A stretch of DNA of 64,000 bases from Escherichia coli (GTDB taxonomy: Bacteria; Pseudomonadota; Gammaproteobacteria; Enterobacterales; Enterobacteriaceae): the NCBI RefSeq assembly GCF_030384885.1, contig NZ_CP128613.1; one strand, written 5' to 3'. The notes below the pieces were generated by a model. The model saw only the letters and a list, made by a program, of their open reading frames with translations. It made no database searches and had not been told where the DNA came from. The position numbers and the translations under genes were made by a program. Below, in pieces: positions 25,901 through 49,488 of the stretch (position 1 is its first letter; each line of letters starts with the position of its first letter).

Positions 25901-26043
25901 AAAAACACCCCTTCTTATGTTTGCTGTCGCGCAGGCTGGAAGCCCGAGGTTTTTTGTTAATGTGGCGGCAGAGGTAGCCGGACCTTGTGGATAGTGCGAA
26001 ATCTGGCACTGAATCGGTTAACTGTCCAGTCGACGGCTTTTTG

Positions 26044-26221
26044 TGTGATATGAATCACATAAATATAGGGGGTAGAGAGGTAATTGACGTGATATACATC
26101 ACAAAATACTTGTGTAAAAAAGCAACAAGACGACGATTTTCGCTAAAAATGGCATTTAAATGTGAGTAATGTCACATTTTTGTTTTGTTAGTTTGTTGAA
26201 TCTTTGTGATCTGAATCACAA
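26044..26221. promoter_or_regulatory. Cluster of CRP-like sites (TGTGA-N6-TCACA) upstream of mtlA
   Basis: tgtgatatgaatcaca (26044-26059), gtgatatacatcaca (26089-26103), tgtgagtaatgtcaca (26161-26176), tgtgatctgaatcaca (26206-26221); the mtl promoter is known to carry multiple CRP sites. Confidence 0.6.
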
Positions 26222-26436
26222 GATATTTTCTTACGGCGTTCACCTGATGTGATCTGCAGCATGTTATGCCTTCGTCATAAAATCGTTATGTAACTAAGCA
26301 ACTCATAACCTCTAAAAATTATTCTTTGGTGTTATGGCGAGAATCGCGAACCCGAATTATTGTCAAAATATCAGCCTGACTCCCTTCTGGCTGCCAGCCA
26401 AAAAACAACACCGATAAACGTGAATCCGAGGCAGAT

Positions 26437-26799
26437 ATGTTTCTAAACTATTTCGCGTTGGGAGTGCTGATCTTCGTCTTTCTGGTGATTTTTTATGGAA
26501 TCATCGCGATACATGACATCCCTTATCTGATTGCCAAAAAGCGCAATCACCCCCATGCCGACGCTATTCATACGGCGGGCTGGGTGAGCCTGTTTACTCT
26601 GCATGTTATCTGGCCGTTCCTGTGGATCTGGGCGACGCTCTATCAACCGGAGCGTGGCTGGGGTATGCAGTCACATGTTGCGTCGCAGGAGAAAGCGACT
26701 GACCCGGAAATCGCCGCACTTTCTGACCGAATTTCCCGGCTGGAGCATCAACTCGCCGCCGAGAAAAAGACTGACTATTCCACGTTCCCGGAGATCTAA
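26437..26799 (+). CDS. yibI: DUF3302-family inner membrane protein
   Basis: 120 aa; [45 protein letters not shown]...; about 90 percent identical over the first 80 aa to the second copy at 40909 (yiaW). Confidence 0.85.
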
Positions 26800-26801
26800 A
26801 T

Positions 26802-27938
26802 ATGGATCTATTGATTGTTTTAACTTACGTGGCGCTGGCGTGGGCGGTCTTTAAAATCTTCCGCATTCCGGTAAATCAGTGGACGCTGGCGACGGCGGCG
26901 CTGGGAGGCGTGTTTCTGGTGAGTGGTTTGATTTTGTTGATGAACTACAACCACCCTTACACTTTTACCGCACAGAAAGCGGTGATTGCTATTCCCATCA
27001 CGCCACAGGTGACGGGGATCGTGACTGAAGTCACTGACAAGAATAATCAGCTTATTCAGAAGGGCGAGGTGCTTTTTAAGCTCGACCCGGTACGTTATCA
27101 GGCGCGAGTCGACAGGCTTCAGGCTGACCTGATGACGGCGACGCATAATATAAAGACACTGCGCGCGCAGCTCACTGAAGCGCAAGCCAATACCACCCAG
27201 GTTTCAGCGGAGCGTGACCGCTTGTTTAAAAATTATCAACGTTACCTGAAAGGCAGCCAGGCGGCGGTAAATCCGTTCTCGGAACGTGACATCGACGATG
27301 CGCGGCAAAACTTCCTCGCGCAGGATGCGCTGGTGAAAGGTTCGGTGGCGGAACAGGCGCAAATCCAGAGCCAGCTCGACAGTATGGTTAACGGTGAGCA
27401 GTCGCAGATTGTCAGCTTAAGGGCGCAGCTTACTGAAGCAAAATATAACCTTGAGCAGACCGTCATTCGCGCGCCGAGCAATGGCTACGTTACTCAGGTA
27501 CTGATCCGCCCAGGTACATACGCAGCTGCCTTGCCGCTACGTCCGGTGATGGTTTTCATCCCCGAGCAAAAACGGCAAATTGTCGCCCAATTTCGGCAGA
27601 ACTCGCTGTTACGTCTGAAACCCGGCGATGATGCGGAAGTGGTGTTTAACGCGCTACCTGGGCAGGTGTTCCACGGCAAACTGACTAGTATTTTACCTGT
27701 CGTGCCAGGCGGTTCGTATCAGGCGCAGGGGGTACTGCAATCATTAACGGTCGTACCCGGCACGGACGGTGTGCTGGGAACCATCGAACTGGACCCTAAC
27801 GATGATATCGATGCCTTACCCGACGGCATCTACGCCCAGGTGGCAGTTTACTCCGACCATTTCAGCCATGTTTCGGTGATGCGGAAGGTGCTGCTAAGAA
27901 TGACCAGTTGGATGCATTATCTTTATTTGGATCATTGA
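26802..27938 (+). CDS. yibH: HlyD-family membrane fusion protein
   Basis: 378 aa; N-terminal TM helix, coiled-coil and barrel-sandwich regions; paralogue of the ORF at 41238 (yiaV). Confidence 0.85.
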
Positions 27939-28395: not shown

Positions 28396-28917
28396 TTATT
28401 CATCGATGCATTTTATAGAATCATCAATGGCTACAATAGTACTATTAACTCTCCAATTTATATTTTTATTATCATTGCAAATATTAACTGAATCTATATC
28501 AATGATTTTTCTATTTTTATCTTTTATTTTATTTACAGTTTCAATGCAATCAGCGACAAGTTGGTGTGGATTTAGATTCTTCAGATATGGTCTTATGATC
28601 TTTCCCTTGCTTAATAAATAGCATGTATAGGATTCGGAAAGTCCAGCATCTATTTTGTACATCATTATTCTAGATAAGGATGTGAGAAATGCCTTGTTAT
28701 CATTAGCAGCCATATATGCCAGTCCGAGTTCAGCCTCTGCGGCTTTACATGAAAAATAGCTAAATGAACACGCTTTTCGTCCCTCTTGGGTACTGGCTGA
28801 TATTAGTGCCCATAATATTGCCTTGTCTGCCAAATCCAACTCTCTCTGAAATTGGTTTACAGTAACTGCATTCGCAGAAATAGAGAAAAAAAGCACAATT
28901 GTTAATAACCTTGCCAT
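28396..28917 (-). CDS. Secreted or periplasmic protein; candidate immunity protein for the orphan Rhs C-terminal toxin
   Basis: 173 aa with cleavable signal peptide (MARLLTIVLFFSISANA); its start codon lies 4 nt after the stop of the orphan rhs-CT ORF, same strand. Confidence 0.45.
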   Translation of the reverse strand: MARLLTIVLFFSISANAVTVNQFQRELDLADKAILWALISASTQEGRKACSFSYFSCKAAEAELGLAYMAANDNKAFLTSLSRIMMYKIDAGLSESYTCYLLSKGKIIRPYLKNLNPHQLVADCIETVNKIKDKNRKIIDIDSVNICNDNKNINWRVNSTIVAIDDSIKCIDE

Positions 28918-28921
28918 ATTT

Positions 28922-30334
28922 CTAGTCCGTCACTGTTAATGTGCTATCTGGCTCTGAAAATATTAGCCCATTTAATTTTTGCATGTCATTAGATGAACCA
29001 GTTATACAACCCTCGGAACAGAATCGAGGTCCTAAAGATGGACCAAAAGCGTTTAAACAACTATGTGTTAAAAATCCATCACGATTATACGTTTCTGTAT
29101 TTGCTGACGGTACTAAACGTATACCATTAGGTTTTCTATTAGTTGCTCCAGGACCATTAACATTCCAGGTCCATACCCCTTGAGGTATTGGGCCTCTATT
29201 TTGTAAGTGTGTACAACCAGGATTATTTTTACATTGCATATTATTACCATTATTACCAGAGGCGACTGAAATAGTAAGCACACCATAAGAATTATCATCA
29301 CTTGGCGTATCTGAAACGCATGAAAGCATACCTAAAGTTATGCTGTATAAACAGGTCGCTAATCCCAACGGGTCAATATCAGTTATCGGATTCAACGGAT
29401 ACTGATAAAAATTCCATCCCCCCTTCAGCCCAATCGGATCCTGAGTGATATACCGCCCCTGCAGCGGGTCATAATAGCGGTGGCGGTTGTAATACAGGCC
29501 GGACTCCTCATCATACTGCTGACCCGGCAGGCGGATGAGCTGCTGCAGCTGGTGCGGGTTCTCTTCATTCAGCAGGTTGCCCCATTCATCATATTCTGCG
29601 TACCACGCTGTTGCCCCTTCCGTGCTGACAAGCGCCAGCGGCAGGCCGCGATGGTCGCAGTGGTACAGGTGGATTTTTCGCGCCGGCGTGTACACCGGGT
29701 CCATCTGGTTTTGCATCTGCTCCACCGTCAGGCCGCACGATGCCAGCCAGCGGCGGCTTTCCTCACTCACCCGGTCAGCCAGGATTTCACTTTCCAGCCG
29801 GTCGAGCATCTGCACCAGCACCGGCGGGAACACCACATGGCCTCCGTCTTCGCCGCCGGACTGCTGAAGGGCATCCGCCAGGCTGCGGCGCTGCGTTTTC
29901 GCCAGCTCACCGGTGGCGGTTTCGACCCTGATGAGTGGCGTGAAACTTCCCGGCAGGTATACCGTCTGGATGCGGGTTCTGTCGTTCTGTATCGTGGTCA
30001 GCCGGTCGCCATCCCAGCCGTACCAGGTCACTTCCGGTTTCCTTGACAGCGACATCCAGCCCGTCAGGTCCCGTTCACGCCGCCACACCCGTTTTGCCAC
30101 CCTGCGGCCCAGCGGGTCGTAAAGATAGCGACTTTCGACCAGCGGCTCTGCATATTGTGTCCGCGTGTAGTGCACCAGCCGGTGCCGGCTGTCGTAATGG
30201 TACCGGTGAGTCCGCTCATCATCCGTGCGGATAACCCCTTCCGGGATGAGGTCGGTTTTCTCCGTCAGCCTGCCGTGACGGTCATACCGGTAAAGATAGT
30301 GCGCGTCACGGGCGATACGGTTATCCGGCCACAT
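28922..30334 (-). CDS. Orphan rhs 3' fragment: distal Rhs core followed by an alternative C-terminal toxin domain
   Basis: 470 aa; the first ~325 aa are nearly identical to the distal core of the rhs gene at 30774-32915 up to the DPxGL boundary ([30 protein letters not shown]); the remaining ~145 aa are unrelated to the main gene. Confidence 0.75.
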
Positions 30335-30410
30335 GCTGAGGGTGCTGTCCGGGTGCAGCTCCGGGTCGGGCAGGCGGTTACCTGCCGGGTCTGTTGCATA
30401 CGGGATATCA
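29386..30410. repeat. Direct repeat copy A (~1.0 kb) of the rhs distal core
   Basis: Identical spurious plus-strand ORFs in the track at 29480 and 31347 (also 29535/31402, 29740/31607, 29913/31780, 30043/31910) give a constant 1867-bp offset; homology ends where the DPxGL-encoding sequence ends. Confidence 0.85.
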
Positions 30411-30447
30411 ATGCCCAGGTTACATATAATAATAAGAGCAATTAACT

Positions 30448-30774
30448 TTATTTATTTATAATGCGCTTACTTAATACAAACCATTGAATATACCCTCCTG
30501 ACAGAAAATAAAGCCATATTATTATCGCCATAATATACTTGCTATCAATTCTTACGCCAATAATGTCTGAAATACTCCCTATAAATATTAGAGCAATAAA
30601 GAATACTATGCCTGTTGGAAAACATATTACCATCATTCCATAAGACATGAGACTAATTAACTCGCTCACATCACGAGTGGAGTCTAATAGTGAAAGTCTA
30701 TGCATGGAAAAGAATAGCATTAAAAGTGATAACGCCAGCCATATAGCTCTGAATGAAAAAATAATATATTTCAT
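30448..30774 (-). CDS. Small three-helix membrane protein; candidate immunity protein for the main Rhs C-terminal toxin
   Basis: 108 aa, three hydrophobic segments; start codon overlaps the rhs stop by 1 nt (TAATG), same strand. Confidence 0.45.
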
Positions 30775-32915
30775 TACATCACTCCGGTGAATACAAATCT
30801 AATAAAACGTCCAATGTTATTTCCGGAGCACTTCATCTTACATGTTTCTAAAGAATCATTAGACCAGTCTTGGCAGTTTTTAAATAGCCCTAAATTTATA
30901 GGTGTGAATATATCAGGCAATACAGAATAACGCGGCCTTACCTCTTTAAATTTCCCTTTTAAACAGTTCTCCACACAACTATTATCGGTTTCAACGAGGT
31001 CACAACGGCCAGCAGCTTCTTTTGTATCATTACTTGCTTTACCTGGCCCCCATAGACCATCTCCTTTTGATTCTCCCCGTTGGTCTTGGCCACCACAAGT
31101 ATAGTCCCCTTTACCATCTGGGACACAAAGATATTGATGATAGAACGGATTCCCCCATATATCTGGACCGCTTCTTTCACCAGTTCCGCCCATTGAATGC
31201 AGTGGCTTAATGCATTTTAGTGTTTCTAATCCTAATGGATCTATATTTGAGATCGGATTCAACGGATACTGATAAAAATTCCATCCCCCCTTCAGCCCAA
31301 TCGGATCCTGAGTGATATACCGCCCCTGCAGCGGGTCATAATAGCGGTGGCGGTTGTAATACAGGCCGGACTCCTCATCATACTGCTGACCCGGCAGGCG
31401 GATGAGCTGCTGCAGCTGGTGCGGGTTCTCTTCATTCAGCAGGTTGCCCCATTCATCATATTCTGCGTACCACGCTGTTGCCCCTTCCGTGCTGACAAGC
31501 GCCAGCGGCAGGCCGCGATGGTCGCAGTGGTACAGGTGGATTTTTCGCGCCGGCGTGTACACCGGGTCCATCTGGTTTTGCATCTGCTCCACCGTCAGGC
31601 CGCACGATGCCAGCCAGCGGCGGCTTTCCTCACTCACCCGGTCAGCCAGGATTTCACTTTCCAGCCGGTCGAGCATCTGCACCAGCACCGGCGGGAACAC
31701 CACATGGCCTCCGTCTTCGCCGCCGGACTGCTGAAGGGCATCCGCCAGGCTGCGGCGCTGCGTTTTCGCCAGCTCACCGGTGGCGGTTTCGACCCTGATG
31801 AGTGGCGTGAAACTTCCCGGCAGGTATACCGTCTGGATGCGGGTTCTGTCGTTCTGTATCGTGGTCAGCCGGTCGCCATCCCAGCCGTACCAGGTCACTT
31901 CCGGTTTCCTTGACAGCGACATCCAGCCCGTCAGGTCCCGTTCACGCCGCCACACCCGTTTTGCCACCCTGCGGCCCAGCGGGTCGTAAAGATAGCGACT
32001 TTCGACCAGCGGCTCTGCATATTGTGTCCGCGTGTAGTGCACCAGCCGGTGCCGGCTGTCGTAATGGTACCGGTGAGTCCGCTCATCATCCGTGCGGATA
32101 ACCCCTTCCGGGATGAGGTCGGTTTTCTCCGTCAGCCTGCCGTGACGGTCATACCGGTAAAGATAGTGCGCGTCACGTGTTATACGGTTATCCGGCCACA
32201 TGCTGAGGGTGCTGTCCGGGTGCAGCTCCGGGTCAGGCAGGCGGTTACCTGCCGGGTCCGTGGCATACGGGATGCGGATATCCAGATTTGAGGTGGTGGT
32301 GTGGACGCCGGTCAGCCTGCCGGTGGTGCTGTAGCTGTAACTCCGGGTCTGGCGCGGGCTGCTGATGCGGATGAGTTCGCCGTTGTCGTTCCAGGTGTAA
32401 TCGCGGTCATACTGCAGGCTGTTCAGGTGCTGGCTCTGTAACTGCCCGGCAGGGGTATAAGCGGTGGTGAGTTCATAACGGCCGAAGCTGCGCAGCGTTT
32501 CCCGGTGCAGGCGGTCGCGGGTGAAATCCACCAGCGGTGTGTCGCCGAGTTTCATCCCTGCCAGGTAACCACTGCCATAAGTCAGCCATTCCACGGCGGG
32601 CAGGCTGTCCGGTATACAGCGGTTCGCCAGCCCCTGCGCGTTGTACGCATGTCTGGTTTCATGCTGCCAGAGCAGTTCATTCGTCTGCGGGTGATGCACC
32701 GTCTGGCGCTCACCGGTCAGGGCAAGGTCGGTTTCGCCGGGAAGGACCTTTGCACCGAGCAACGGATTGACCGGATGACCGGACGTCACCCCGCCGGGGC
32801 ACACCGAACAGGCCACGCTGGTGGGGGCACCAATACGTACCCCGGCTGAACCCTGAACAATGCTACCGCCATACTGCGTCATGTCGCCCTGACGCGCCGC
32901 CGGTTTTCCGCTCAT
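30774..32915 (-). CDS. Rhs-family polymorphic toxin, short form: PAAR-type N-terminus, distal YD-repeat core, DPxGL boundary, cysteine-rich C-terminal domain
   Basis: 713 aa; [22 protein letters not shown]... (literal PAAR motif); YD repeats ([46 protein letters not shown]); conserved core end PxxxxDPxGL; AAGGA Shine-Dalgarno before the ATG at 32915. Confidence 0.8.
31253..32277. repeat. Direct repeat copy B (~1.0 kb) of the rhs distal core
   Basis: Partner of 29386-30410; see that entry. Confidence 0.85.
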
Positions 32916-33143
32916 CTGCTCATCCTTGTTTTATCGGGTTATTTGTCTGCTGACAGGCGAAACCCTACAGATTTATAAGAAAGCCTTAAGTGAGATATCT
33001 GTCAGATAAGAACAATTAGGAAAATATTTATATCACCATGATAAATATGTGATTTATTGGGAGGTAACAAACCATCAACATTTTCTGCCCTTTTTCCCAT
33101 CACCAGGCCATACTGATATTTTTCCTCGCACAAAGGACTCGGC

Positions 33144-40411: not shown

Positions 40412-40747
40412 TTAATCTCGCGTTTCGATGGTGAGCGGGCGGACCAGGCTGTACAGCCACAGACCAAAACAAGCGATGGTGCCAATCACCACGGTGAGGA
40501 ACACACTGACTGACAGGCCTGCAAGCAATCCCGCAGGCAGGGCCAGCAGGCCGTGGATCACGGTGTCGTTCCATCTCACCAGATCGTAGCCAAACATGCC
40601 TAAAACGCCGCAAACCAGACCGTAAATCACCATTGGTGTTCCGAGGCCAATCAGCAATAAACGGTAGATAATTGAAGGTTTAATACGCTTTATCTGTACT
40701 GTGGATGTTTTACTGGGGTTATTCATTAGTTTGGTCAATAGTTCCAT
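40412..40747 (-). CDS. Hypothetical small inner-membrane protein (two predicted TM helices); start uncertain
   Basis: ORF with hydrophobic stretches IIYRLLLIGLGTPMVIYGLVCGVLGMF and LLALPAGLLAGLSVSVFLTVVIGTIACFGLWLY; no strong Shine-Dalgarno at any candidate start (40795 GTG, 40747 ATG, 40726 ATG). Confidence 0.4.
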   Translation of the reverse strand: MELLTKLMNNPSKTSTVQIKRIKPSIIYRLLLIGLGTPMVIYGLVCGVLGMFGYDLVRWNDTVIHGLLALPAGLLAGLSVSVFLTVVIGTIACFGLWLYSLVRPLTIETRD

Positions 40748-40908
40748 TATTTCAATATGATAAACCTCGACCTGTTGAAAAGCCAGGTAGCACACTTCAG
40801 AAAGTATATAAAAAACAATATGTCGTTATATAAATAAGGAAATTGCACTGCATCATGGCATTTCATAATATGCGTTAATTGTTCTTTTTTATATTCTCTG
40901 AGGGAAAT

Positions 40909-41232
40909 ATGTTCCTGGACTATTTTGCACTGGGAGTGCTTATTTTTGTATTTCTGGTGATATTCTATGGGATTATTATTTTACATGATATTCCCTACCT
41001 GATTGCTAAAAAACGTAATCATCCTCATGCCGACGCCATTCATGTTGCTGGTTGGGTGAGTCTTTTTACGCTGCATGTTATCTGGCCATTTTTGTGGATT
41101 TGGGCCACGCTTTACCGCCCGGAGCGGGGATGGGGAATGCAAAACTATGACTCCTCCGTTGTGCAACTACAACAGCGTATTGCCGGGCTGGAGAAACAGC
41201 TCGCCGACATCAAATCCTCTTCTGCCGAGTAA
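40909..41232 (+). CDS. yiaW: DUF3302-family inner membrane protein
   Basis: 107 aa from ATG at 40909, with GAGGGA Shine-Dalgarno; close paralogue of yibI. Confidence 0.8.
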
Positions 41233-41237
41233 TACTT

Positions 41238-42374
41238 ATGGATTTACTGATTATTTTGACCTATGTGGCTTTCGCATGGGCAATGTTTAAGATCTTCAAA
41301 ATTCCTGTAAATAAATGGACCATTCCCACCGCGGCCCTGGGTGGCATATTTATTGTCAGCGGTCTAATTCTGTTAATGAACTATAACCATCCGTATACCT
41401 TTAAAGCGCAAAAAGCGGTTATTTCTATTCCTGTTGTCCCGCAGGTGACAGGCGTGGTGATCGAAGTGACGGACAAGAAAAATACGCTGATTAAAAAAGG
41501 TGAGGTGCTATTTCGACTGGACCCGACGCGTTATCAGGCGCGGGTGGATCGGCTGATGGCGGATATCGTTACCGCAGAACATAAACAGCGGGCGTTGGGC
41601 GCAGAGTTAGATGAGATGGCGGCGAATACTCAGCAGGCAAAGGCCACGCGGGATAAATTCGCTAAAGAGTACCAGCGTTACGCACGCGGCAGCCAGGCGA
41701 AAGTAAACCCGTTTTCAGAACGCGATATTGATGTGGCGCGGCAAAATTATCTGGCGCAGGAAGCCTCCGTAAAGTCATCGGCGGCGGAACAAAAACAGAT
41801 CCAGAGCCAGCTGGATAGCCTGGTGTTGGGTGAACATTCTCAAATCGCCAGCCTGAAAGCGCAGCTCGCGGAAGCAAAATATAACCTTGAGCAGACGATA
41901 GTGCGTGCGCCGAGCGATGGTTATGTGACCCAAGTGCTGATTCGTCCGGGTACCTATGCCGCATCGCTGCCGCTACGTCCTGTGATGGTGTTTATACCCG
42001 ATCAGAAACGACAAATTGTGGCGCAGTTCCGTCAGAACTCCTTGCTGCGACTGGCTCCCGGCGATGATGCGGAAGTGGTGTTTAATGCTCTGCCAGGTAA
42101 GGTATTCAGCGGTAAGCTGGCAGCCATTAGTCCAGCTGTTCCCGGCGGAGCTTATCAGTCGACCGGCACCTTACAGACGTTAAACACAGCACCGGGTTCA
42201 GATGGCGTTATAGCGACCATTGAACTGGATGAGCACACTGAGTTGAGCGCTTTACCAGACGGTATTTACGCCCAGGTGGCGGTTTACTCTGATCATTTCA
42301 GCCATGTCTCGGTGATGCGCAAAGTGCTGTTACGCATGACCAGTTGGGTGCATTACCTTTATCTCGATCATTAA
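41238..42374 (+). CDS. yiaV: HlyD-family membrane fusion protein
   Basis: 378 aa; paralogue of yibH, same domain layout. Confidence 0.85.
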
Positions 42375-43345
42375 TCTTCGCTTTCCGCCGCTTGTTCAGG
42401 CCGCAGTTGCTGCGACTGAGCAAGCTGGTGGCGAATTTCACGCAGCATTTCATCCAGCACATACTGGACCCGCCAGGGCTGGTATTCCCGTTTACGGAAG
42501 ATAGCCACCAGATCCAGCCACCATTCATACGGTTGCTGAAAGCAGGGCACCAGCGTGCCGTCTTGCAGGTCGCTCTGCACACTTTTGTCTGGCGCAAACA
42601 CAATCCCCAGGTGATTTCGTGCCAGCTCCAGCGCCGATTGCGTGTTGTCGCAAACGTAATTTCCCTTCACGCGATAATCCCGCACCTCTTTACTCCCGGC
42701 GACGTTGAAGCGCCAGATATTCGCGTCGTCGATCATCATCGAGTCGATCAAAATACAGGAGTGATGTTCGAGTTCGTCAGGACGGCTAATGGGATGTTTC
42801 TCAAGATAGCGCTGACTGGCATAAGCGGTTACGGCATATTGCGTAATAAAACTGGCAACCAGCGATTCATCTTTTGGTGGAGCATAGCTGATTAAAACAT
42901 CACAATCATCGGGAAATTCGACACCTTCATAAAAGGCATTACGCTCAAGATTGCAGGTTTTTAGCGATAAGGTGATATCACCGATATCTTTAATTTTATC
43001 GATAACATGTTTGGATAAATAGGTAATTATGCCGGTTGGGGCGTAGATGGTGACCCGACCACGCTTCTCATGCTTATAATCTGCAATAAAATTATTAAGT
43101 TGCTCGTTTCTGTCCAGCATGTCGTTGATGTACGGTAACAGCGCGGTACCAAAAGGTGTGAGCATCAGCTGCCGGGTGGTTCGGTCAAAGACTTTTAAAC
43201 CTACTTTTGATTCAAAATCAGCAAGATATTTGCTGACGTTGGCCTGTGCGAATCCAAGTACAGTCGCGGCATGGCTGATATTTTCACTGGCAGCGATTAC
43301 CGAGATAATTTTTAACTCCCGGTACTTAAGTTGTAATTTTGTCAT
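42371..43345 (-). CDS. yiaU: LysR-family transcriptional regulator
   Basis: 324 aa; N-terminal HTH ([28 protein letters not shown]) and LysR substrate-binding domain. Confidence 0.85.
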
Positions 43346-43468: not shown

Positions 43469-44209
43469 ATGTTAATTAACCGCAATATTGTGGCGTTATT
43501 TGCGTTACCTTTTATGGCAAGCGCAACTGCTTCTGAATTATCCATTGGTGCTGGTGCAGCTTATAATGAATCGCCTTATCGTGGTTATAATGAAAATACA
43601 AAGGCAATTCCGCTGATTAGTTATGAAGGTGATTCATTTTATGTTCGTCAGACCACGTTAGGTTTTATTCTGTCGCAAAGTGAAAAAAATGAACTTAGTC
43701 TGACCGCATCCTGGATGCCGCTGGAATTTGACCCTGCAGATAATGACGATCATGCCATGCAACAGCTTGATAAGCGTGATAGTACGGCTATGGCGGGGGT
43801 TGCCTGGTATCACCACGAGCGTTGGGGAACCGTGAAAGCCTCTGCGGCTGCGGACGTTCTGGATAACAGCAACGGCTGGGTGGGGGAGCTATCGGTATTT
43901 CACAAAATGCAGATAGGTCGCCTGTCGCTGACACCTGCACTGGGCGTTCTCTATTATGACGAGAATTTCAGTGACTATTACTATGGCATTTCAGAGAGTG
44001 AGTCCCGTCGTAGCGGTCTGGCAAGTTATTCCGCGCAGGATGCCTGGGTGCCCTATGTCAGCCTGACGGCAAAATACCCGATAGGAGAGCACATCGTATT
44101 GATGGCGAGTGCCGGATACAGCGAGCTGCCGGAAGAGATTACCGACAGCCCGATGATTGATCGTAATGAGAGTTTTACCTTTGTCACCGGCGTGAGCTGG
44201 CGTTTTTAA
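43469..44209 (+). CDS. yiaT: MipA/OmpV-family outer membrane protein
   Basis: 246 aa; signal peptide; beta-barrel-like sequence ending in aromatic residues (SWRF). Confidence 0.85.
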   Translation: MLINRNIVALFALPFMASATASELSIGAGAAYNESPYRGYNENTKAIPLISYEGDSFYVRQTTLGFILSQSEKNELSLTASWMPLEFDPADNDDHAMQQLDKRDSTAMAGVAWYHHERWGTVKASAAADVLDNSNGWVGELSVFHKMQIGRLSLTPALGVLYYDENFSDYYYGISESESRRSGLASYSAQDAWVPYVSLTAKYPIGEHIVLMASAGYSELPEEITDSPMIDRNESFTFVTGVSWRF

Positions 44210-44345: not shown

Positions 44346-46309
44346 TGGCAATGCTTTTCCTCATTCACCCAGATCCGCATTTCGCCTTCACCCCGGTTAG
44401 CCCAGCTAAACCACGGGATAAATGTCAGAGTTTGCGGCTGGCGTTTGGCTGGCGCGCTGTCGTAATGCCACAGCGGTTGCTGCTCTGGATAGCTCTGTTC
44501 ATACCGGTAACCCGGTGCCTGGATTAAGATCTTATGGCTGAACAATCCCTTACCTTCAAATGTCGTAAATGGCGCATCGGTGGGCAGCCACAGATTATGC
44601 AGTGACTCGCCGTTGTCGGCCTGTTCCAGGCAATACACCAGCGGGCCGCGCTGAATCGCCACTTTTCCGGCGACGTGACGCACCAGCGGGTTACCGTAAA
44701 CGCGACGTACCGGCATTGGCAACGTCAGATTCAGCGTGTCGCCCTCCTGCCATTCGCGGGTAATGTGCAAATACCCTTTACGAATATCCTGCTCGACCTC
44801 TTCCCCATTCAATGTAATCTGCGGCTGTGTGCACCAGTCCGGCAGACGTAAAGCCAGCGTATGACGCACCGGCTGGGGCGATTCAACCGCAATTGTCACC
44901 TGTTCCTGCCACGGATAGTTTCCGCTAACCCGCAGACGCAGCGTGCCATTTTCTACCGGCACTTCCATGCTGTTTCCTGCGTAGATGTTGATATACAACG
45001 CATCTTCACGCGGCGTGTAGAGATAATGACCAATCGAGGTTAGCACGCGGGCGATATTTGGCGGACAACAAGCGCAACCAAACCAACGCTGGCGGATCGG
45101 CTTAACGTGATCGTAGATATGGTTGAATTTCAGCGATTTTGGATGTACTTCCAGCGGATTCACATAGAAGAAATGTTTGCCATCCAGCGCCATGCCGCCG
45201 AGCACGGTGTTGTACAGTGCGCGCTCCATCACATCGGCATAGTGACTGTCGCCTTCCATTTCCAGCATTCGCCGGGCGAACATCATCAGGCCGATGGAAG
45301 CACAGCTTTCGGCGTATACCGTGTCATTCGGCAGATCGTAATCGCTGCTGAACGCTTCGCCGCTGCTTTGTGAGCCAATGCCGCCGGTAATATATAACTG
45401 ACGCTGGGCCATATTGTTCCACAGCCGCAGGCAGTCCTGACGCTTGCTTTCATCGTGACTTAAACGCGCGAGATGCGCGACGCCGGTCATCAGGTAGACA
45501 AAACGTACCGCGTGACCAATGGCGGTTTGCTGCTGTGCGATGGGCAAATGTGCCTGGCTGTAGGCTTTGTCTTTCACCATCCACGCCGGGCCGTAGGTGT
45601 GCCAGTGCGAGGTCTGTCCGCGCTTTTCATATTCCTGGTCGTAATAGTGCGGTTGCGCACCACGCTGTTCGACAAAATAGTTCGTCAGCGCCAGGTAGCG
45701 CGGCTCTTCGGTCACTTCATACAGGCGCATTAGTGCCAGTTCAATTTCCGGGTGACCAGGATAACCGTGTAACTTACTTTCACCTGGACCAAATACGCTG
45801 TCGATATGATCGGCCAGACGGCAAACCACTTCCAGCAAGCGCCGCTTGCCCGTGGCCTGGAAGAAGGCGACTCCGGCTTCAATCAGATGACCGGCGCAGT
45901 AAAGTTCATGACACTCCGCCAGATTGCTCCAGCGTTCTTCGGGCGCTTTTACCGTAAAGTAAGTATTGAGATAGCCATCTTCGCACTGGGCGGAAGCGAC
46001 CAGTTCGATTACCTCGTCAGCAGTTTTTTCCAGTTCGGCATCCGGCTTCTGGCACAGCGACCAGGCTACCGCTTCCAGCCATTTGGCGACGTCGCTGTCC
46101 TGAAACACCATCCCGTAAAATTCACCGTCTTGCAGTCCTGCGGCAATGCGAAAGTTTTCAATCGCATGGCTGGGTTCCGCTTCTGGGATACGATCGTTCA
46201 AGGCATCCCACTGATAAGGAATCACCACGTCGCGGACCAGTTGTTGGTACTGACCGAGGAACGGATCGCTGACCGTCAGTTTATGCAGATCGACTTCCGA
46301 AATGTTCAT
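44339..46309 (-). CDS. Glycoside hydrolase family 127-like protein (beta-L-arabinofuranosidase-like, DUF1680)
   Basis: 656 aa from the ATG at 46309, which has a perfect AAGGAG Shine-Dalgarno; contains E-S-C (YAESCASIG) and C-x-C-C (WFGCACCPPN) motifs that match the zinc-Cys catalytic site of GH127 enzymes as I recall it. Confidence 0.8.
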   Translation of the reverse strand: MNISEVDLHKLTVSDPFLGQYQQLVRDVVIPYQWDALNDRIPEAEPSHAIENFRIAAGLQDGEFYGMVFQDSDVAKWLEAVAWSLCQKPDAELEKTADEVIELVASAQCEDGYLNTYFTVKAPEERWSNLAECHELYCAGHLIEAGVAFFQATGKRRLLEVVCRLADHIDSVFGPGESKLHGYPGHPEIELALMRLYEVTEEPRYLALTNYFVEQRGAQPHYYDQEYEKRGQTSHWHTYGPAWMVKDKAYSQAHLPIAQQQTAIGHAVRFVYLMTGVAHLARLSHDESKRQDCLRLWNNMAQRQLYITGGIGSQSSGEAFSSDYDLPNDTVYAESCASIGLMMFARRMLEMEGDSHYADVMERALYNTVLGGMALDGKHFFYVNPLEVHPKSLKFNHIYDHVKPIRQRWFGCACCPPNIARVLTSIGHYLYTPREDALYINIYAGNSMEVPVENGTLRLRVSGNYPWQEQVTIAVESPQPVRHTLALRLPDWCTQPQITLNGEEVEQDIRKGYLHITREWQEGDTLNLTLPMPVRRVYGNPLVRHVAGKVAIQRGPLVYCLEQADNGESLHNLWLPTDAPFTTFEGKGLFSHKILIQAPGYRYEQSYPEQQPLWHYDSAPAKRQPQTLTFIPWFSWANRGEGEMRIWVNEEKHCHP

Positions 46310-46319
46310 CTTGTGCTCC

Positions 46320-47720
46320 TTAAGGCTGTACATGACGCTGACGCAGGTCGCTAGCAATGCGTGACATCATAGGGTTATTGAGTTTGCAAAAGCGGATCGC
46401 CATCGCCAGCAGCAGGTGGAACAGCGCAGGCAGCAATGTTTCCATCGCCGCGATCCCGCCAAGCGAACTGGCGGTCTGGTTTTCCACGCCTGGCTGGTAG
46501 GCGACAAAAATAAACAGCAGGCTGATGATCCCGGCGCTGGAGGCCCAGGCCAGCTTGATGAAAAACAGATTGAAGGCGAAGTTCATGCCGGAAGAACGTA
46601 CGCGGGTTTTCCACTCGCCGTAGTCATCGGCAAAGGCCATCAATGAGAAGTGCAATGGCAATGTGAAGCCAAGAATCACGCCATTACCAAGGATCACCGC
46701 CAGCCACAGCGTTTGATAAGCCGGGCCAGAAGGCAGGAACCACATCAACACCGCCAGCGCGGCGAGGAGCAGGTTGGTGTAGTAGTAAATTTTGACGGTA
46801 TCGAAACGTCGCGTTAACGGGCTGACAATCACCGAGCCGATAATGGAGGCGAAGGTGACCATAGTGAAGAACAGCGACGTGTAGCCCGTACTGCCTTGTA
46901 AGACGTAGGTAATGAAGTACATATACCCACCGCCGCGAATATTAAAGACGTTAATCAGCAGGAAAGACATGACCAGCATCAGCAGCAGTTGGTCGTTGTT
47001 TCGCAGCCCGGCAAGATGTTCGCGCAGGGTAAATTTCCCCATTGTGGAGAGTGGCACCCGTTCACGAACCCAGAAGAAACAGCACAGGAACATCACCACA
47101 GCGATGGCGCACAGCACGCCGACGCCCAGTTGATAGCCGCGCGCGGCATTACCCTGACCGAAGAGATCTACCATCCACGGCAGGCCAACCGAAACCAGAA
47201 ATCCCGCTACGCCGCAGAGAACGAATCGCCAGGACTGGCAGGAGATCACTTCATTGTGGCGGGTGGTCATGGTGTTGATCAGCGCGCAGTACGGCACGTT
47301 GATGGCGGTATAACCGACTGAAAGGAGCAGGTAAGTGCCGAACGCCCAGGCGATTTTTACTCCCATGCTGGCATCTGGCACGGTGAACGTCAGGATGCCG
47401 ATAATGCCGATGGGAATGGCAATCCACAACTGCCACGGACGAAAGCGCCCCCAGCGACTTTGCGTCCGGTCGGCAATGACGCCCATCACCGGGTCGGAGA
47501 TGGCATCAAACACGCGCAGTGCAATAAACAGCGTGCCGACCAGCGCCGGAGTTAAGCCAAAAACGTCGGTGTAGAAAAAGGTGAGAAAGTTCATGATCAG
47601 GCAGGTTATGACGGTGCCGCCAGCGTCACCCAGGCCGTAGCCTATTTTTTCCCGTACAGATAACGCGTCGTCAATTTTACCTTTAGCGATATCAGCGGTA
47701 GTAATCGGTGTAGAGGTCAT
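46320..47720 (-). CDS. GPH-family (glycoside-pentoside-hexuronide) cation symporter
   Basis: 466 aa from the ATG at 47720, with GAGGAA Shine-Dalgarno; about 12 hydrophobic segments; N-terminal GYGLGDAGG motif typical of MelB/GusB-type sugar symporters. Confidence 0.8.
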
Positions 47721-47945
47721 AGATATTCCTCGCAAATAGAGAGCATTTTTTTGTTTTATTGCAATGACCTGATTAATTTCGCCGTTATCTGGAATATCAA
47801 CAAGGCGAGAAAAGAGTAAAAAAAGGTGACGATTCCGACCTGAATTTAAAAGTGTGAATTGGATCAGGTGAAATTAATGTTTTTGATTAATAATCAAAAG
47901 GTAATGTGTTTAATCATTAATGAATAAGCGGGAAATTACATATCA

Positions 47946-48761
47946 ATGCTCGAATTATCCATGACGTTACCGATTAAAGTGCAAAATGGTGGATTATTTA
48001 TTTCCCGTGGCGTAGGGAGGCATCCGGCAAGGCGGCTGGAGTCATGGGAAATTATCTTTGTCGAAAAAGGTCGATTAGCGATTCAGGAAGAAGAGCGGAT
48101 ATTTCTGGTCGATGCGGGAGAGAGTTTATTACTCTGGCCGAACCGACAGCATGTTGGGGTAGAGGATTTTCCCGCCGATCTCAAATTTTACTGGCTGCAT
48201 TTTGAGGTTAAAGCGCCGGATAGCGACCCGCGCTGGCTCACTCATCTTAGCGTGCCGCAACAAACGAAGGTTGCCGATCCGCAGGCGCTGGTGGCCCTGT
48301 TTCGCCAGTTCTTAAGCGAACAGGAAAAGCATCAACGCACTCCGGCGCTGGAGTTTATTGTGCTGCTGATTTTGCAGCAACTCACCCGTGACGCGCGTCT
48401 TGATGAACAGGCCGATGCCGCAGGTACCACGCTTGCCTGGAAAGCGCAGAAACTGATCCGCACGCAATATCATCGCCCGCTTTCCACTGCGCTTTTAGCC
48501 CGCGAGCTGTACTGCAATGCCGATTATCTTGGGCGCGTCTATCGGCGGGTGTTTCATCTGACGTTAACAGAAGCAATCCACCGCCAGCGGGTGCGCGAAG
48601 CCGAAAAGCTGTTAATTAGCGACGCGCGCTCGCTCACGGAAGTGGCGGCGTTGTGCGGGTTTAATGACGTTGGCTATTTCCGGCAGATTTTTCGCAAACA
48701 CACCGGATTAACGCCAGCTGCGTGGAAGCGACGTTACAGCAAGGAACATATCAATTCGTAG
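47946..48761 (+). CDS. AraC/XylS-family transcriptional regulator
   Basis: 271 aa; N-terminal cupin-like sensor region and C-terminal double HTH (TEVAALCGFNDVGYFRQIFRKHTGLTPAAWKRR); divergent from the symporter/GH127 genes. Confidence 0.8.
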   Translation: MLELSMTLPIKVQNGGLFISRGVGRHPARRLESWEIIFVEKGRLAIQEEERIFLVDAGESLLLWPNRQHVGVEDFPADLKFYWLHFEVKAPDSDPRWLTHLSVPQQTKVADPQALVALFRQFLSEQEKHQRTPALEFIVLLILQQLTRDARLDEQADAAGTTLAWKAQKLIRTQYHRPLSTALLARELYCNADYLGRVYRRVFHLTLTEAIHRQRVREAEKLLISDARSLTEVAALCGFNDVGYFRQIFRKHTGLTPAAWKRRYSKEHINS

Positions 48762-48792
48762 TGTCGGGGCAATGAAGCCCCGGCGTGAGAGA

Positions 48793-49488
48793 TTACTGCC
48801 CGTAATAGGCATTGGCCCCATGCTTACGCAGGTAGTGCTTATCCAGCAGTTCGTTTTGCATGGCAGGGAGCTGTGGTGCAAGCTGGCGCGAGAACAGGCC
48901 CATATAGGCGCACTCTTCCAGCACTACGGCATTATGCACCGCATCGGCGGCATTTTTTCCCCAGGCGAACGGGCCGTGAGAATGCACCAGTACCGCCGGG
49001 ATTTGTGCCGGACTCCTGCCACGTTCTTCGAAGGTTTCAATGATCACTTTGCCGGTCTGGTATTCATACTCGCCGTTAATCTCCGCTGCGGTCATCTGTC
49101 GCGTGCAGGGGATTGCGCCATAGAAATAATCGGCGTGAGTGGTGCCCCAGGCGGGGAGATCCAGCCCGGCCTGCGACCAGATGGTGGCGTGGCGCGAGTG
49201 GGTATGCACAATACCACCGATTTCGGCATAGCGACGGTAAAGCGCCAGATGCGTTGGCGTATCGGACGAGGGCTTTTTGCTACCTTCCACCACCTTGCCG
49301 CTGGCTATCTCAACCACCACCATATCGTCGGCGGTCATCACGTCGTACTCGACGCCGGAAGGTTTGATTACCATCCATTGCCGCGTTTCGTCTACCGCGC
49401 TGACATTGCCCCAGGTAAACGTCATCAGATGGTGAGCGGGAAGCGCCAGATTTGCCGCCAGCACGTCGGCTTTCAGTTGCTCTAACAT
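48793..49488 (-). CDS. sgbE: L-ribulose-5-phosphate 4-epimerase
   Basis: 231 aa; class II aldolase/epimerase fold; AraD-like. Confidence 0.9.

Follow-up and report, generated by a model that had tools for sequence, protein, structure and literature searches.

Tripartite envelope systems are treated in a large 2021 review as assemblies whose engines are ABC, RND or MFS transporters, and the accessible part of that review mentions neither YibH nor YiaV, two HlyD-type adaptors (TC 8.A.1) of Escherichia coli. The closest described systems are EmrAB-TolC (MFS-type; PDB 8zal/8zar) and the PET-type operons YtcA-MdtNOP, YdhIJK and AaeXAB, in which the gene for a small membrane protein (ytcA, ydhI or aaeX; DUF1656/YtcA) lies immediately 5' of the adaptor gene and an AaeB/FUSC-type inner-membrane protein is always encoded. 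Here we examine yibIH and yiaWV, two gene pairs in a 64,000-nucleotide stretch of E. coli chromosomal DNA (RefSeq assembly GCF_030384885.1, contig NZ_CP128613.1; the whole stretch is called the window below), each of which encodes a small DUF3302 protein followed by an adaptor, YibH or YiaV. The four genes belong to the uncharacterized ‘y-ome’ of the best-studied bacterium, and of the E. coli adaptors examined, YibH and YiaV alone lack a pump gene alongside. A preliminary description of the window, made from its letters alone, had named no established function for either pair; our full-text literature searches likewise found none, only scattered phenotypes. Our preferred reading, to which we give a probability of roughly 0.45, is that the two pairs are anciently diverged copies of one module, which supplies the inner-membrane and periplasmic components of an assembly that spans the envelope and depends on an outer membrane factor (OMF).

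All four open reading frames (ORFs) were recovered by ORF calling where the preliminary description had placed them (Table 1). Their names were taken from the RefSeq annotation of strain 2013C-4282, 100% identical over the stretches compared, which lists yibI and yiaW as DUF3302 and yibH and yiaV as HlyD family. The genes and their paralogy were thus already annotated, and the duplication itself is ordinary; what is added here is the comparative context that defines a DUF3302/adaptor module and, possibly, a new type of tripartite system. Alignment and ORFs bear out that the same two-gene module occurs twice on the same strand about 14 kb apart (14,472 bp from start to start). YibI and YiaW share 73% identity overall (E 5e-61), with 73/78 residues identical in the DUF3302 core and 73/80 over residues 1-80, in keeping with the figure of about 90% reported before; YibH and YiaV are 77% identical across 378 residues without a gap. 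This paralogous match is far beyond chance. At the DNA level the homology spans the ribosome-binding site (RBS) to the stop codon only, and the flanks are unrelated. The yiaW ATG at 40909 lines up with the yibI ATG and RBS; the alignment gives no support to an alternative TTG start at 40879.

Synonymous divergence between the copies is saturated (dS >2, and not computable for the core), and dN/dS is 0.065-0.08. Given the unrelated flanks and saturated dS, the duplication must be old, and recent duplication or gene conversion is ruled out even for the 94%-identical core, so that the near-identity of the N-terminal core reflects constraint and not gene conversion. Both pairs are ancient duplicates under strong purifying selection. 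In a neighbor-joining tree the YiaV clade branches outside every YibH-type protein sampled from Enterobacterales, so that yiaWV could be a local duplicate that evolved faster, an old paralog since lost many times, or a xenolog.

By profile and fold, YibH and YiaV are HlyD-type adaptors, although neither has an adjacent inner-membrane transporter gene. Both exceed the cut-offs of PF00529 (56.7 and 53.0 bits for YibH and YiaV, respectively; cut-off 26.5) and PF16576 (42.1 and 44.5 bits; cut-off 30), while TIGR01730 is passed by YibH (99.9 bits; cut-off 94.9) and YiaV lies just under it (88.1). The models of individual adaptors are far from reached: EmrA/EmrK (TIGR00998, 113.5 and 112 bits vs 390.8), the EmrA equivalog (NF011715, 57 and 52 vs 563), MdtN (NF007785, 110.9 and 112.2 vs 376) and AaeA (NF007850, 75.1 and 63.8 vs 400). 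The N-terminus of YibH is a transmembrane (TM) hairpin with helices at aa 2-19 and aa 26-50, residues 97-218 (window 27090-27455) make up the alpha-hairpin, and residues 355-374 form an amphipathic helix at the C-terminus; a lipoyl domain and a beta-barrel complete the protein. Its AF2 model (pLDDT 82) has no membrane-proximal domain, and the two hairpin helices, H97-152 and H161-218 (56 + 58 residues), are modeled at pLDDT >90; from helix length the hairpin is estimated at about 85 A.

A Foldseek search with this model matched EmrA, MacA, AcrA and MexA at E 2e-21 to 1e-10, and the best match was E. coli EmrA in EmrAB-TolC (8zal/8zar; E 2e-21, TM-score 0.60-0.65), which was also the best PDB sequence match (E 1.7e-11). 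In EmrA as in YibH/YiaV the N-terminus is anchored by TM segments, the lipoyl and beta-barrel domains are accompanied by a long alpha-hairpin, and a membrane-proximal domain is lacking. However, identity is only about 21%, YibH and YiaV have two N-terminal TM helices where EmrA has one, they carry an extra conserved C-terminal helix, the exact spacing of the RLS tip motif (described below) is missing from their hairpin, no emrB-like gene is adjacent, and the obligate DUF3302 partner has no counterpart in EmrA. Among E. coli proteins, MdtN is the nearest paralog by sequence (27-29% identity), followed by YdhJ (24%), AaeA (21-24%) and EmrA. Three features are the signature of the DUF3302-linked adaptors: the additional TM helix at the N-terminus, the motif MNYNHP where TM2 ends, and the RxxLLRMxxW helix at the C-terminus. 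The motifs are invariant in our alignment, and these adaptors form a subfamily of their own.

That MdtN, YdhJ and AaeA are the three closest paralogs raises another explanation, in which the pairs are what is left of PET/AaeAB-type systems, or satellites to them, and serve an unlinked AaeB/FUSC-type or MFS pump, with organic acids or drugs leaving through TolC. E. coli has orphan AaeB/FUSC-type proteins in YccS and YhfK. The small-protein-then-adaptor order of ytcA, ydhI and aaeX is mirrored in the DUF3302 pairs, and AaeA too has a basic C-terminal helix. The small proteins, however, show no detectable relation: AaeX, YdhI and YtcA all match DUF1656, YibI does not match it even at E<=10, and neither BLASTP nor Pfam at E<=10 supports the idea that DUF3302 is a diverged form of DUF1656/AaeX. 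The E. coli pairs have neither a DUF1656/YtcA gene nor an AaeB/FUSC gene in their operons, the combination that marks PET/AaeXAB systems; none of the roughly 130 DUF3302 loci we examined has an adjacent AaeB/FUSC gene, and searches of the window and of 8 kb around the pair in 76 Enterobacterales loci found no such gene either. Together with the scores far under the MdtN, AaeA and EmrA cut-offs, this makes a PET origin unlikely in our view.

The small partner belongs to a compact family (819 DUF3302 representatives at 50% clustering). PF11742 matches YibI with 140 bits (model positions 1-76 of 77) and YiaW with 147 bits (1-77 of 77), against a cut-off of 32. The highly conserved core, rich in His and Asp, consists of TM1, a conserved 20-residue loop and a Trp-rich TM2, and is followed by a variable linker and a short C-terminal helix. 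In YibI the two-TM hairpin core covers aa 1-78 (window 26437-26670), the linker is disordered, and the C-terminal helix covers aa 90-115 (26704-26781); the AF2 model (pLDDT 87) places helices at H2-26, H28-35, H41-68 and H90-115. A fold search of the PDB with YibI returned nothing significant, the best match being PorL/GldL motor subunits at E=3, which we do not use as evidence. From the positive-inside rule we infer an N-out TM hairpin for both YibI and YibH, with a short basic loop in the cytoplasm; with this topology the C-terminal helix of YibI would be periplasmic, beside the adaptor. Both partners contain a conserved Asn-His-Pro motif, in YibI as KRNHP (window 26535-26549; loop motif KKRNHPH across DUF3302) and in YibH as YNHPY (26943-26957; within the adaptor motif MNYNHP), and these motifs may be a common site for proton or metal binding.

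The two genes are tightly coupled across the family. The adaptor starts -4 to +18 nt from the DUF3302 stop codon in 71/73 loci, a gap that implies translational coupling and fixed stoichiometry, and in every distant locus with a visible downstream gene the adaptor gene lies directly 3' of DUF3302. Both E. coli pairs show the spacing, the TM hairpin, the NYNHP motif and the RxxLLRMxxW helix of this module. The only split locus is L156 (5971-8980), where an opposite-strand 439-aa ORF, probably an insertion, separates the two genes. The context of distant members was taken from individually looked-up representatives and one metagenome scan seeded with a distant member; a genome-contig scan and an alignment-based profile search returned close Enterobacterales relatives only. 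Two adaptor classes were distinguished, one with a short hairpin (315-327 aa) and one with a long hairpin (345-384 aa), the latter including YibH and YiaV.

In the short class an OMF gene is directly adjacent in 9/18 loci with a visible flank. It lies downstream of the pair in L085, L121, L133, L136, L142, L155, L172 and L174, whereas L081/L083 have it upstream; the OMF of L174 scores above the NodT cut-off. Five loci encode a PF00999 transporter of roughly 400 aa, a cation/proton antiporter (CPA) that in NCBIfam matches the NhaP2-type potassium/proton antiporter best. Writing D for DUF3302 and MFP for the adaptor, their gene orders are CPA-D-MFP (L102), CPA-D-MFP-OMF (L172), K-channel-like-CPA-D-MFP-OMF (L155), D-MFP-CPA (L132) and, with a CPA remnant, CPA remnant-D-MFP-OMF-K-channel-like (L174), so that a K+-channel-like gene occurs at two loci. 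The antiporter-linked loci show three gene orders and a GC content of 29-60%, and their antiporters are 38-68% and their adaptors 43-81% identical to one another. This spread in GC content and the divergence of antiporters and adaptors indicate that the association is old and not the accident of a single lineage. The best-supported reading is that DUF3302 and its adaptor are an obligate pair of OMF-dependent assemblies; within the family, a deep branch has the pair wired to a cation/proton antiporter.

The CPA-DUF3302-adaptor-OMF clusters come from uncultured Gammaproteobacteria, and we found no published description of them. Their DUF3302 core is 50-60% identical to that of the E. coli proteins, and they share the TM hairpin, the NYNHP motif and the RxxLLRM helix; their adaptors, however, are of the short-hairpin kind (315-320 aa vs 378 aa in E. 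coli), and many keep a canonical RLS tip (R-x3-L-x6-S), the part of the hairpin used for docking to TolC or another OMF. The exact motif was found in five family members (L086, L149, L172, L155 and L087). In the clusters the pair lies beside genes for a NodT-type OMF and for an NhaP2-like antiporter, neighbors that the E. coli pairs do not have. The preliminary description had called the partners of these adaptors unclear; they are less obscure than that, given relatives with the pair beside OMF and cation/proton antiporter genes.

No ABC or RND gene turned up where neighbors had been annotated with Pfam, although no systematic ABC/RND screen was made. At L175 (1-8317; Metapseudomonas resinovorans AP013068) a DUF1302-DUF1329-BNR-MMPL cluster of the RND superfamily ends 117 bp 5' of the DUF3302-adaptor pair on the same strand, and its MMPL protein is a different candidate transporter partner in that lineage. 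Two metagenomic loci that are unrelated to each other have a PPK2 polyphosphate kinase gene near the module: in L138 (5937-6782) it comes directly after the adaptor gene, and in L085 (7231-8067) it comes after the OMF gene and a SulP/STAS transporter gene.

In the reading that we prefer, YibI and YibH would form a stoichiometric inner-membrane complex, and YibH would oligomerize as other adaptors do and reach TolC or another OMF. The energized inner-membrane partner in E. coli would be encoded elsewhere, or else the ring of YibI/YibH TM helices may itself be the conduit; the substrate would likely be a small cation, K+, Na+ or a polycation. Of the two copies, yibIH beside mtlA would be the ancestral core copy and yiaWV, beside yiaU-yiaT, an accessory copy bound by H-NS. 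A bolder version, which we consider doubtful, takes DUF3302 and the adaptor as an undescribed envelope-spanning class with a CPA1 (NhaP2-like) antiporter as its engine instead of an RND, ABC, MFS or PET protein. DUF3302 would then link the antiporter to the adaptor-OMF tunnel, and yibIH and yiaWV would be derivatives unlinked from their partner, with a role in the homeostasis of K+, Na+ or polycations in settings such as urine or the inside of macrophages. If the antiporter link is physical, it would represent a new energizing family for tripartite envelope systems; if it is not, a clean account still remains of an old paralog pair with one core and one accessory copy. In either case the obligate pairing, the OMF association and the recurrence of K+/H+-type antiporter and K+-channel-like genes turn ‘unknown function’ into testable leads.

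Several observations weigh against this proposal. Gene adjacency is no proof of physical coupling, and it is not obvious why ions should be exported through an outer membrane that already contains porins. OMF, CPA and FUSC genes are absent within about 8 kb in E. coli and in all 76 Enterobacterales loci, where a non-adjacent EmrB-like MFS gene in three loci was the sole match, and none of 8-9 long-hairpin relatives has OMF or CPA neighbors, so the linkage evidence comes from the short-hairpin branch only. ORFs in the metagenomic loci were called crudely with a simple script and classed by BLAST, Pfam and NCBIfam. Neither YibI/YiaW nor YibH/YiaV encodes an energy-coupling domain. Instead of the canonical RLS tip, YibH and YiaV have QRY[LA][KR]GSQA[AK]VNPFS with a 2-residue insertion; according to a regular-expression search and an alignment with AcrA R128, MacA R131 and MdtN R139, the Arg and Ser are retained and the Leu is displaced. 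E. coli CvrA was considered as an ortholog of the DUF3302-linked antiporters and rejected at only 23-28% identity, which means that no partner can be named by orthology. Finally, a yiaW::aph mutant had no phenotype in the phagosome assay used, and yibH has been used as a neutral site for integration.

About half of the distant loci encode the pair only, or the pair with an OMF, and no transporter. Taken with the two TM helices contributed by each protein and the extraordinarily conserved, His- and Asp-rich DUF3302 core, this could indicate a self-sufficient channel, in which a ring of YibH and YibI TM hairpins forms a passive or proton-gated pore into the adaptor tunnel and the His and Asp residues of DUF3302 act as gate or proton relay. 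Such an arrangement has no structural precedent, however, the YibI fold search gave it no help, and the recurrent antiporter genes suggest a real transporter partner; we consider it very unlikely.

The two copies differ in their distribution. yibIH is present in 5406/5426 complete E. coli genomes (99.6%). yiaWV was found at >=90% identity in about 3816 and is absent from about 30%; in another 1431 the yiaWV query merely cross-matches yibIH at 60-80%. In a synteny comparison across Enterobacterales, the order mtlA-yibIH is kept in Escherichia, Citrobacter, Enterobacter, Lelliottia, Leclercia, Klebsiella, Raoultella and Trabulsiella, and aldB-yiaWV-yiaU-yiaT is limited to Escherichia, Citrobacter and Pseudocitrobacter. 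yibIH is therefore the core copy and yiaWV the accessory copy, and the two are not equivalent. The accessory status of yiaWV fits its lower GC content (49.6% vs 52.7% for yibIH) and the binding of its region by H-NS (PMC3946193). A third, divergent DUF3302-adaptor pair (75-78% identity), followed by a LysR-like gene, occurs in Citrobacter sp. NCU1 and Awk 4 (L061 2635-4115; L062 1089-2569). Plasmid or mobile-element cargo was considered and rejected, the matches at >=77% being Pantoea and other megaplasmids or mislabelled chromosomes and the rest generic adaptors at <60%.

The patchy occurrence of yiaWV, its H-NS-bound region and the tolerated deletion of yibH might be taken to mean that the pairs are redundant, functionless leftovers drifting toward loss. 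However, dN/dS is low for both genes, the core has stayed nearly identical despite saturated dS, yibIH is almost universal, YibI protein has been seen by proteomics, and loss of yibI carries a fitness cost in urine (see below). Given this selection signal, functionless decay is strongly disfavoured and extremely improbable.

One yiaWV-lacking genome, that of strain EC69, was inspected. There sgbE/araD comes directly after aldB, and the whole block hypothetical-yiaW-yiaV-yiaU-yiaT is missing; yibIH is intact, and yibH abuts yibF with no rhs element between them. The coverage pattern suggests that yiaU-yiaT was lost jointly in the remaining yiaWV-lacking genomes as well. YiaU (LpsR) controls yiaT and LPS core (waa) genes (PMC9068703). 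These observations, along with the lack of any encoded energy source or cytoplasmic domain, could point to a non-transporter role, with the module as a periplasm-spanning structural or sensing strut of the envelope and yiaWV tied to the YiaU (LpsR)/YiaT envelope regulon. Deletion of yiaW is cited as raising Ca2+-transformation efficiency, and deletion of yibI lowered adhesion, both in keeping with an envelope role. On the other hand, relatives encode OMF and antiporter genes in the same operons, and family members carry the canonical OMF-docking tip. YiaU was considered as a yiaWV regulator and is not reported as such in the ChIP-exo/RNA-seq study (PMC9068703); in Enterobacter and Lelliottia aldB-yiaU occurs without yiaWV, which indicates that the linkage of yiaWV to yiaU is secondary. 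We therefore regard a strut as quite unlikely.

Reported expression and phenotypes touch both pairs. Genomic SELEX placed a sigma-70 promoter for yibIH in the mtlA-yibI region (PMC3946193); our promoter and terminator consensus scans, which included this region, gave counts near shuffled expectation. A yibI promoter fragment was 5.6-fold up in urine, and UTI89 lacking yibI adhered less well and had a urine competitive index of 0.33 (PMC5404293). For yiaW, the transcript was raised in macrophage-evolution work, and an IS1 insertion at nt 263 of 324 arose in 3/6 macrophage-evolved populations. Lines with this insertion later acquired insertions in potA or potD (spermidine uptake), and one clone also had a trkH mutation. 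The urine, polyamine and trkH observations fit the idea of a cation substrate loosely. yiaV is listed as an orphan under TC 8.A.1.1.4.

Table 1. The two DUF3302-adaptor pairs and neighboring features in the 64-kb window.
Feature	Position in window	Strand	Remarks
yibI	26437-26799	+	120 aa; ORF call, Pfam PF11742
yibH	26802-27938	+	378 aa; start 2 nt past yibI stop
yiaW	40909-41232	+	107 aa; paralog of yibI, same DUF3302 core, shorter tail
yiaV	41238-42374	+	378 aa; paralog of yibH; start 5 nt past yiaW stop
mtlA-yibI divergent intergenic region with yibIH promoter	25901-26436		genomic SELEX (PMC3946193)
Imm57 immunity gene and RHS core protein gene (4.2 kb)	28396-33091	-	between yibH and yibF
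yiaU (LpsR), LysR regulator	42371-43345	-	convergent with yiaV; comes and goes with yiaWV in E. coli
yiaT, MipA/OmpV-family outer-membrane protein	43469-44209	+	Pfam PF06629, 179 bits

The gene order around the modules is mtlRDA(-) / yibI yibH(+) / Imm57, RHS core(-) / yibF selA selB yiaY aldB(+), followed by a 127-aa hypothetical(-) / yiaW yiaV(+) / yiaU(-) / yiaT(+). A tblastn search of the window found no homolog of an OMF, FUSC/AaeB, EmrB, CPA or K-channel protein, in agreement with the earlier statement that no inner-membrane pump or TolC-like channel is adjacent, and yiaT is the sole outer-membrane protein gene near the modules. The Imm57/RHS genes are a strain-variable toxin/immunity island, a later insertion that widened the spacing of the modules.

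The 3' ends of yiaV (+) and yiaU (-) share 4 nt (window 42371-42374), and this pair is among the convergent ‘excludons’ of PMC12288877. Just 5' of yiaW, the 127-aa predicted membrane protein (window 40412-40795, -) belongs to no Pfam or NCBIfam family; its homologs adjoin yiaW in E. whittamii (91%) and C. amalonaticus (58%), and one lies near yiaT in Pseudocitrobacter (51%). Between yiaT and araD/sgbE (about window 44515-48937) are genes for a GH127 glycoside hydrolase, an MFS transporter and an AraC-type regulator, which are not known at that position in K-12. On the other side, upstream of the mtl operon, the window carries a very large YadA-like trimeric autotransporter adhesin gene (about 13976-19855, -).

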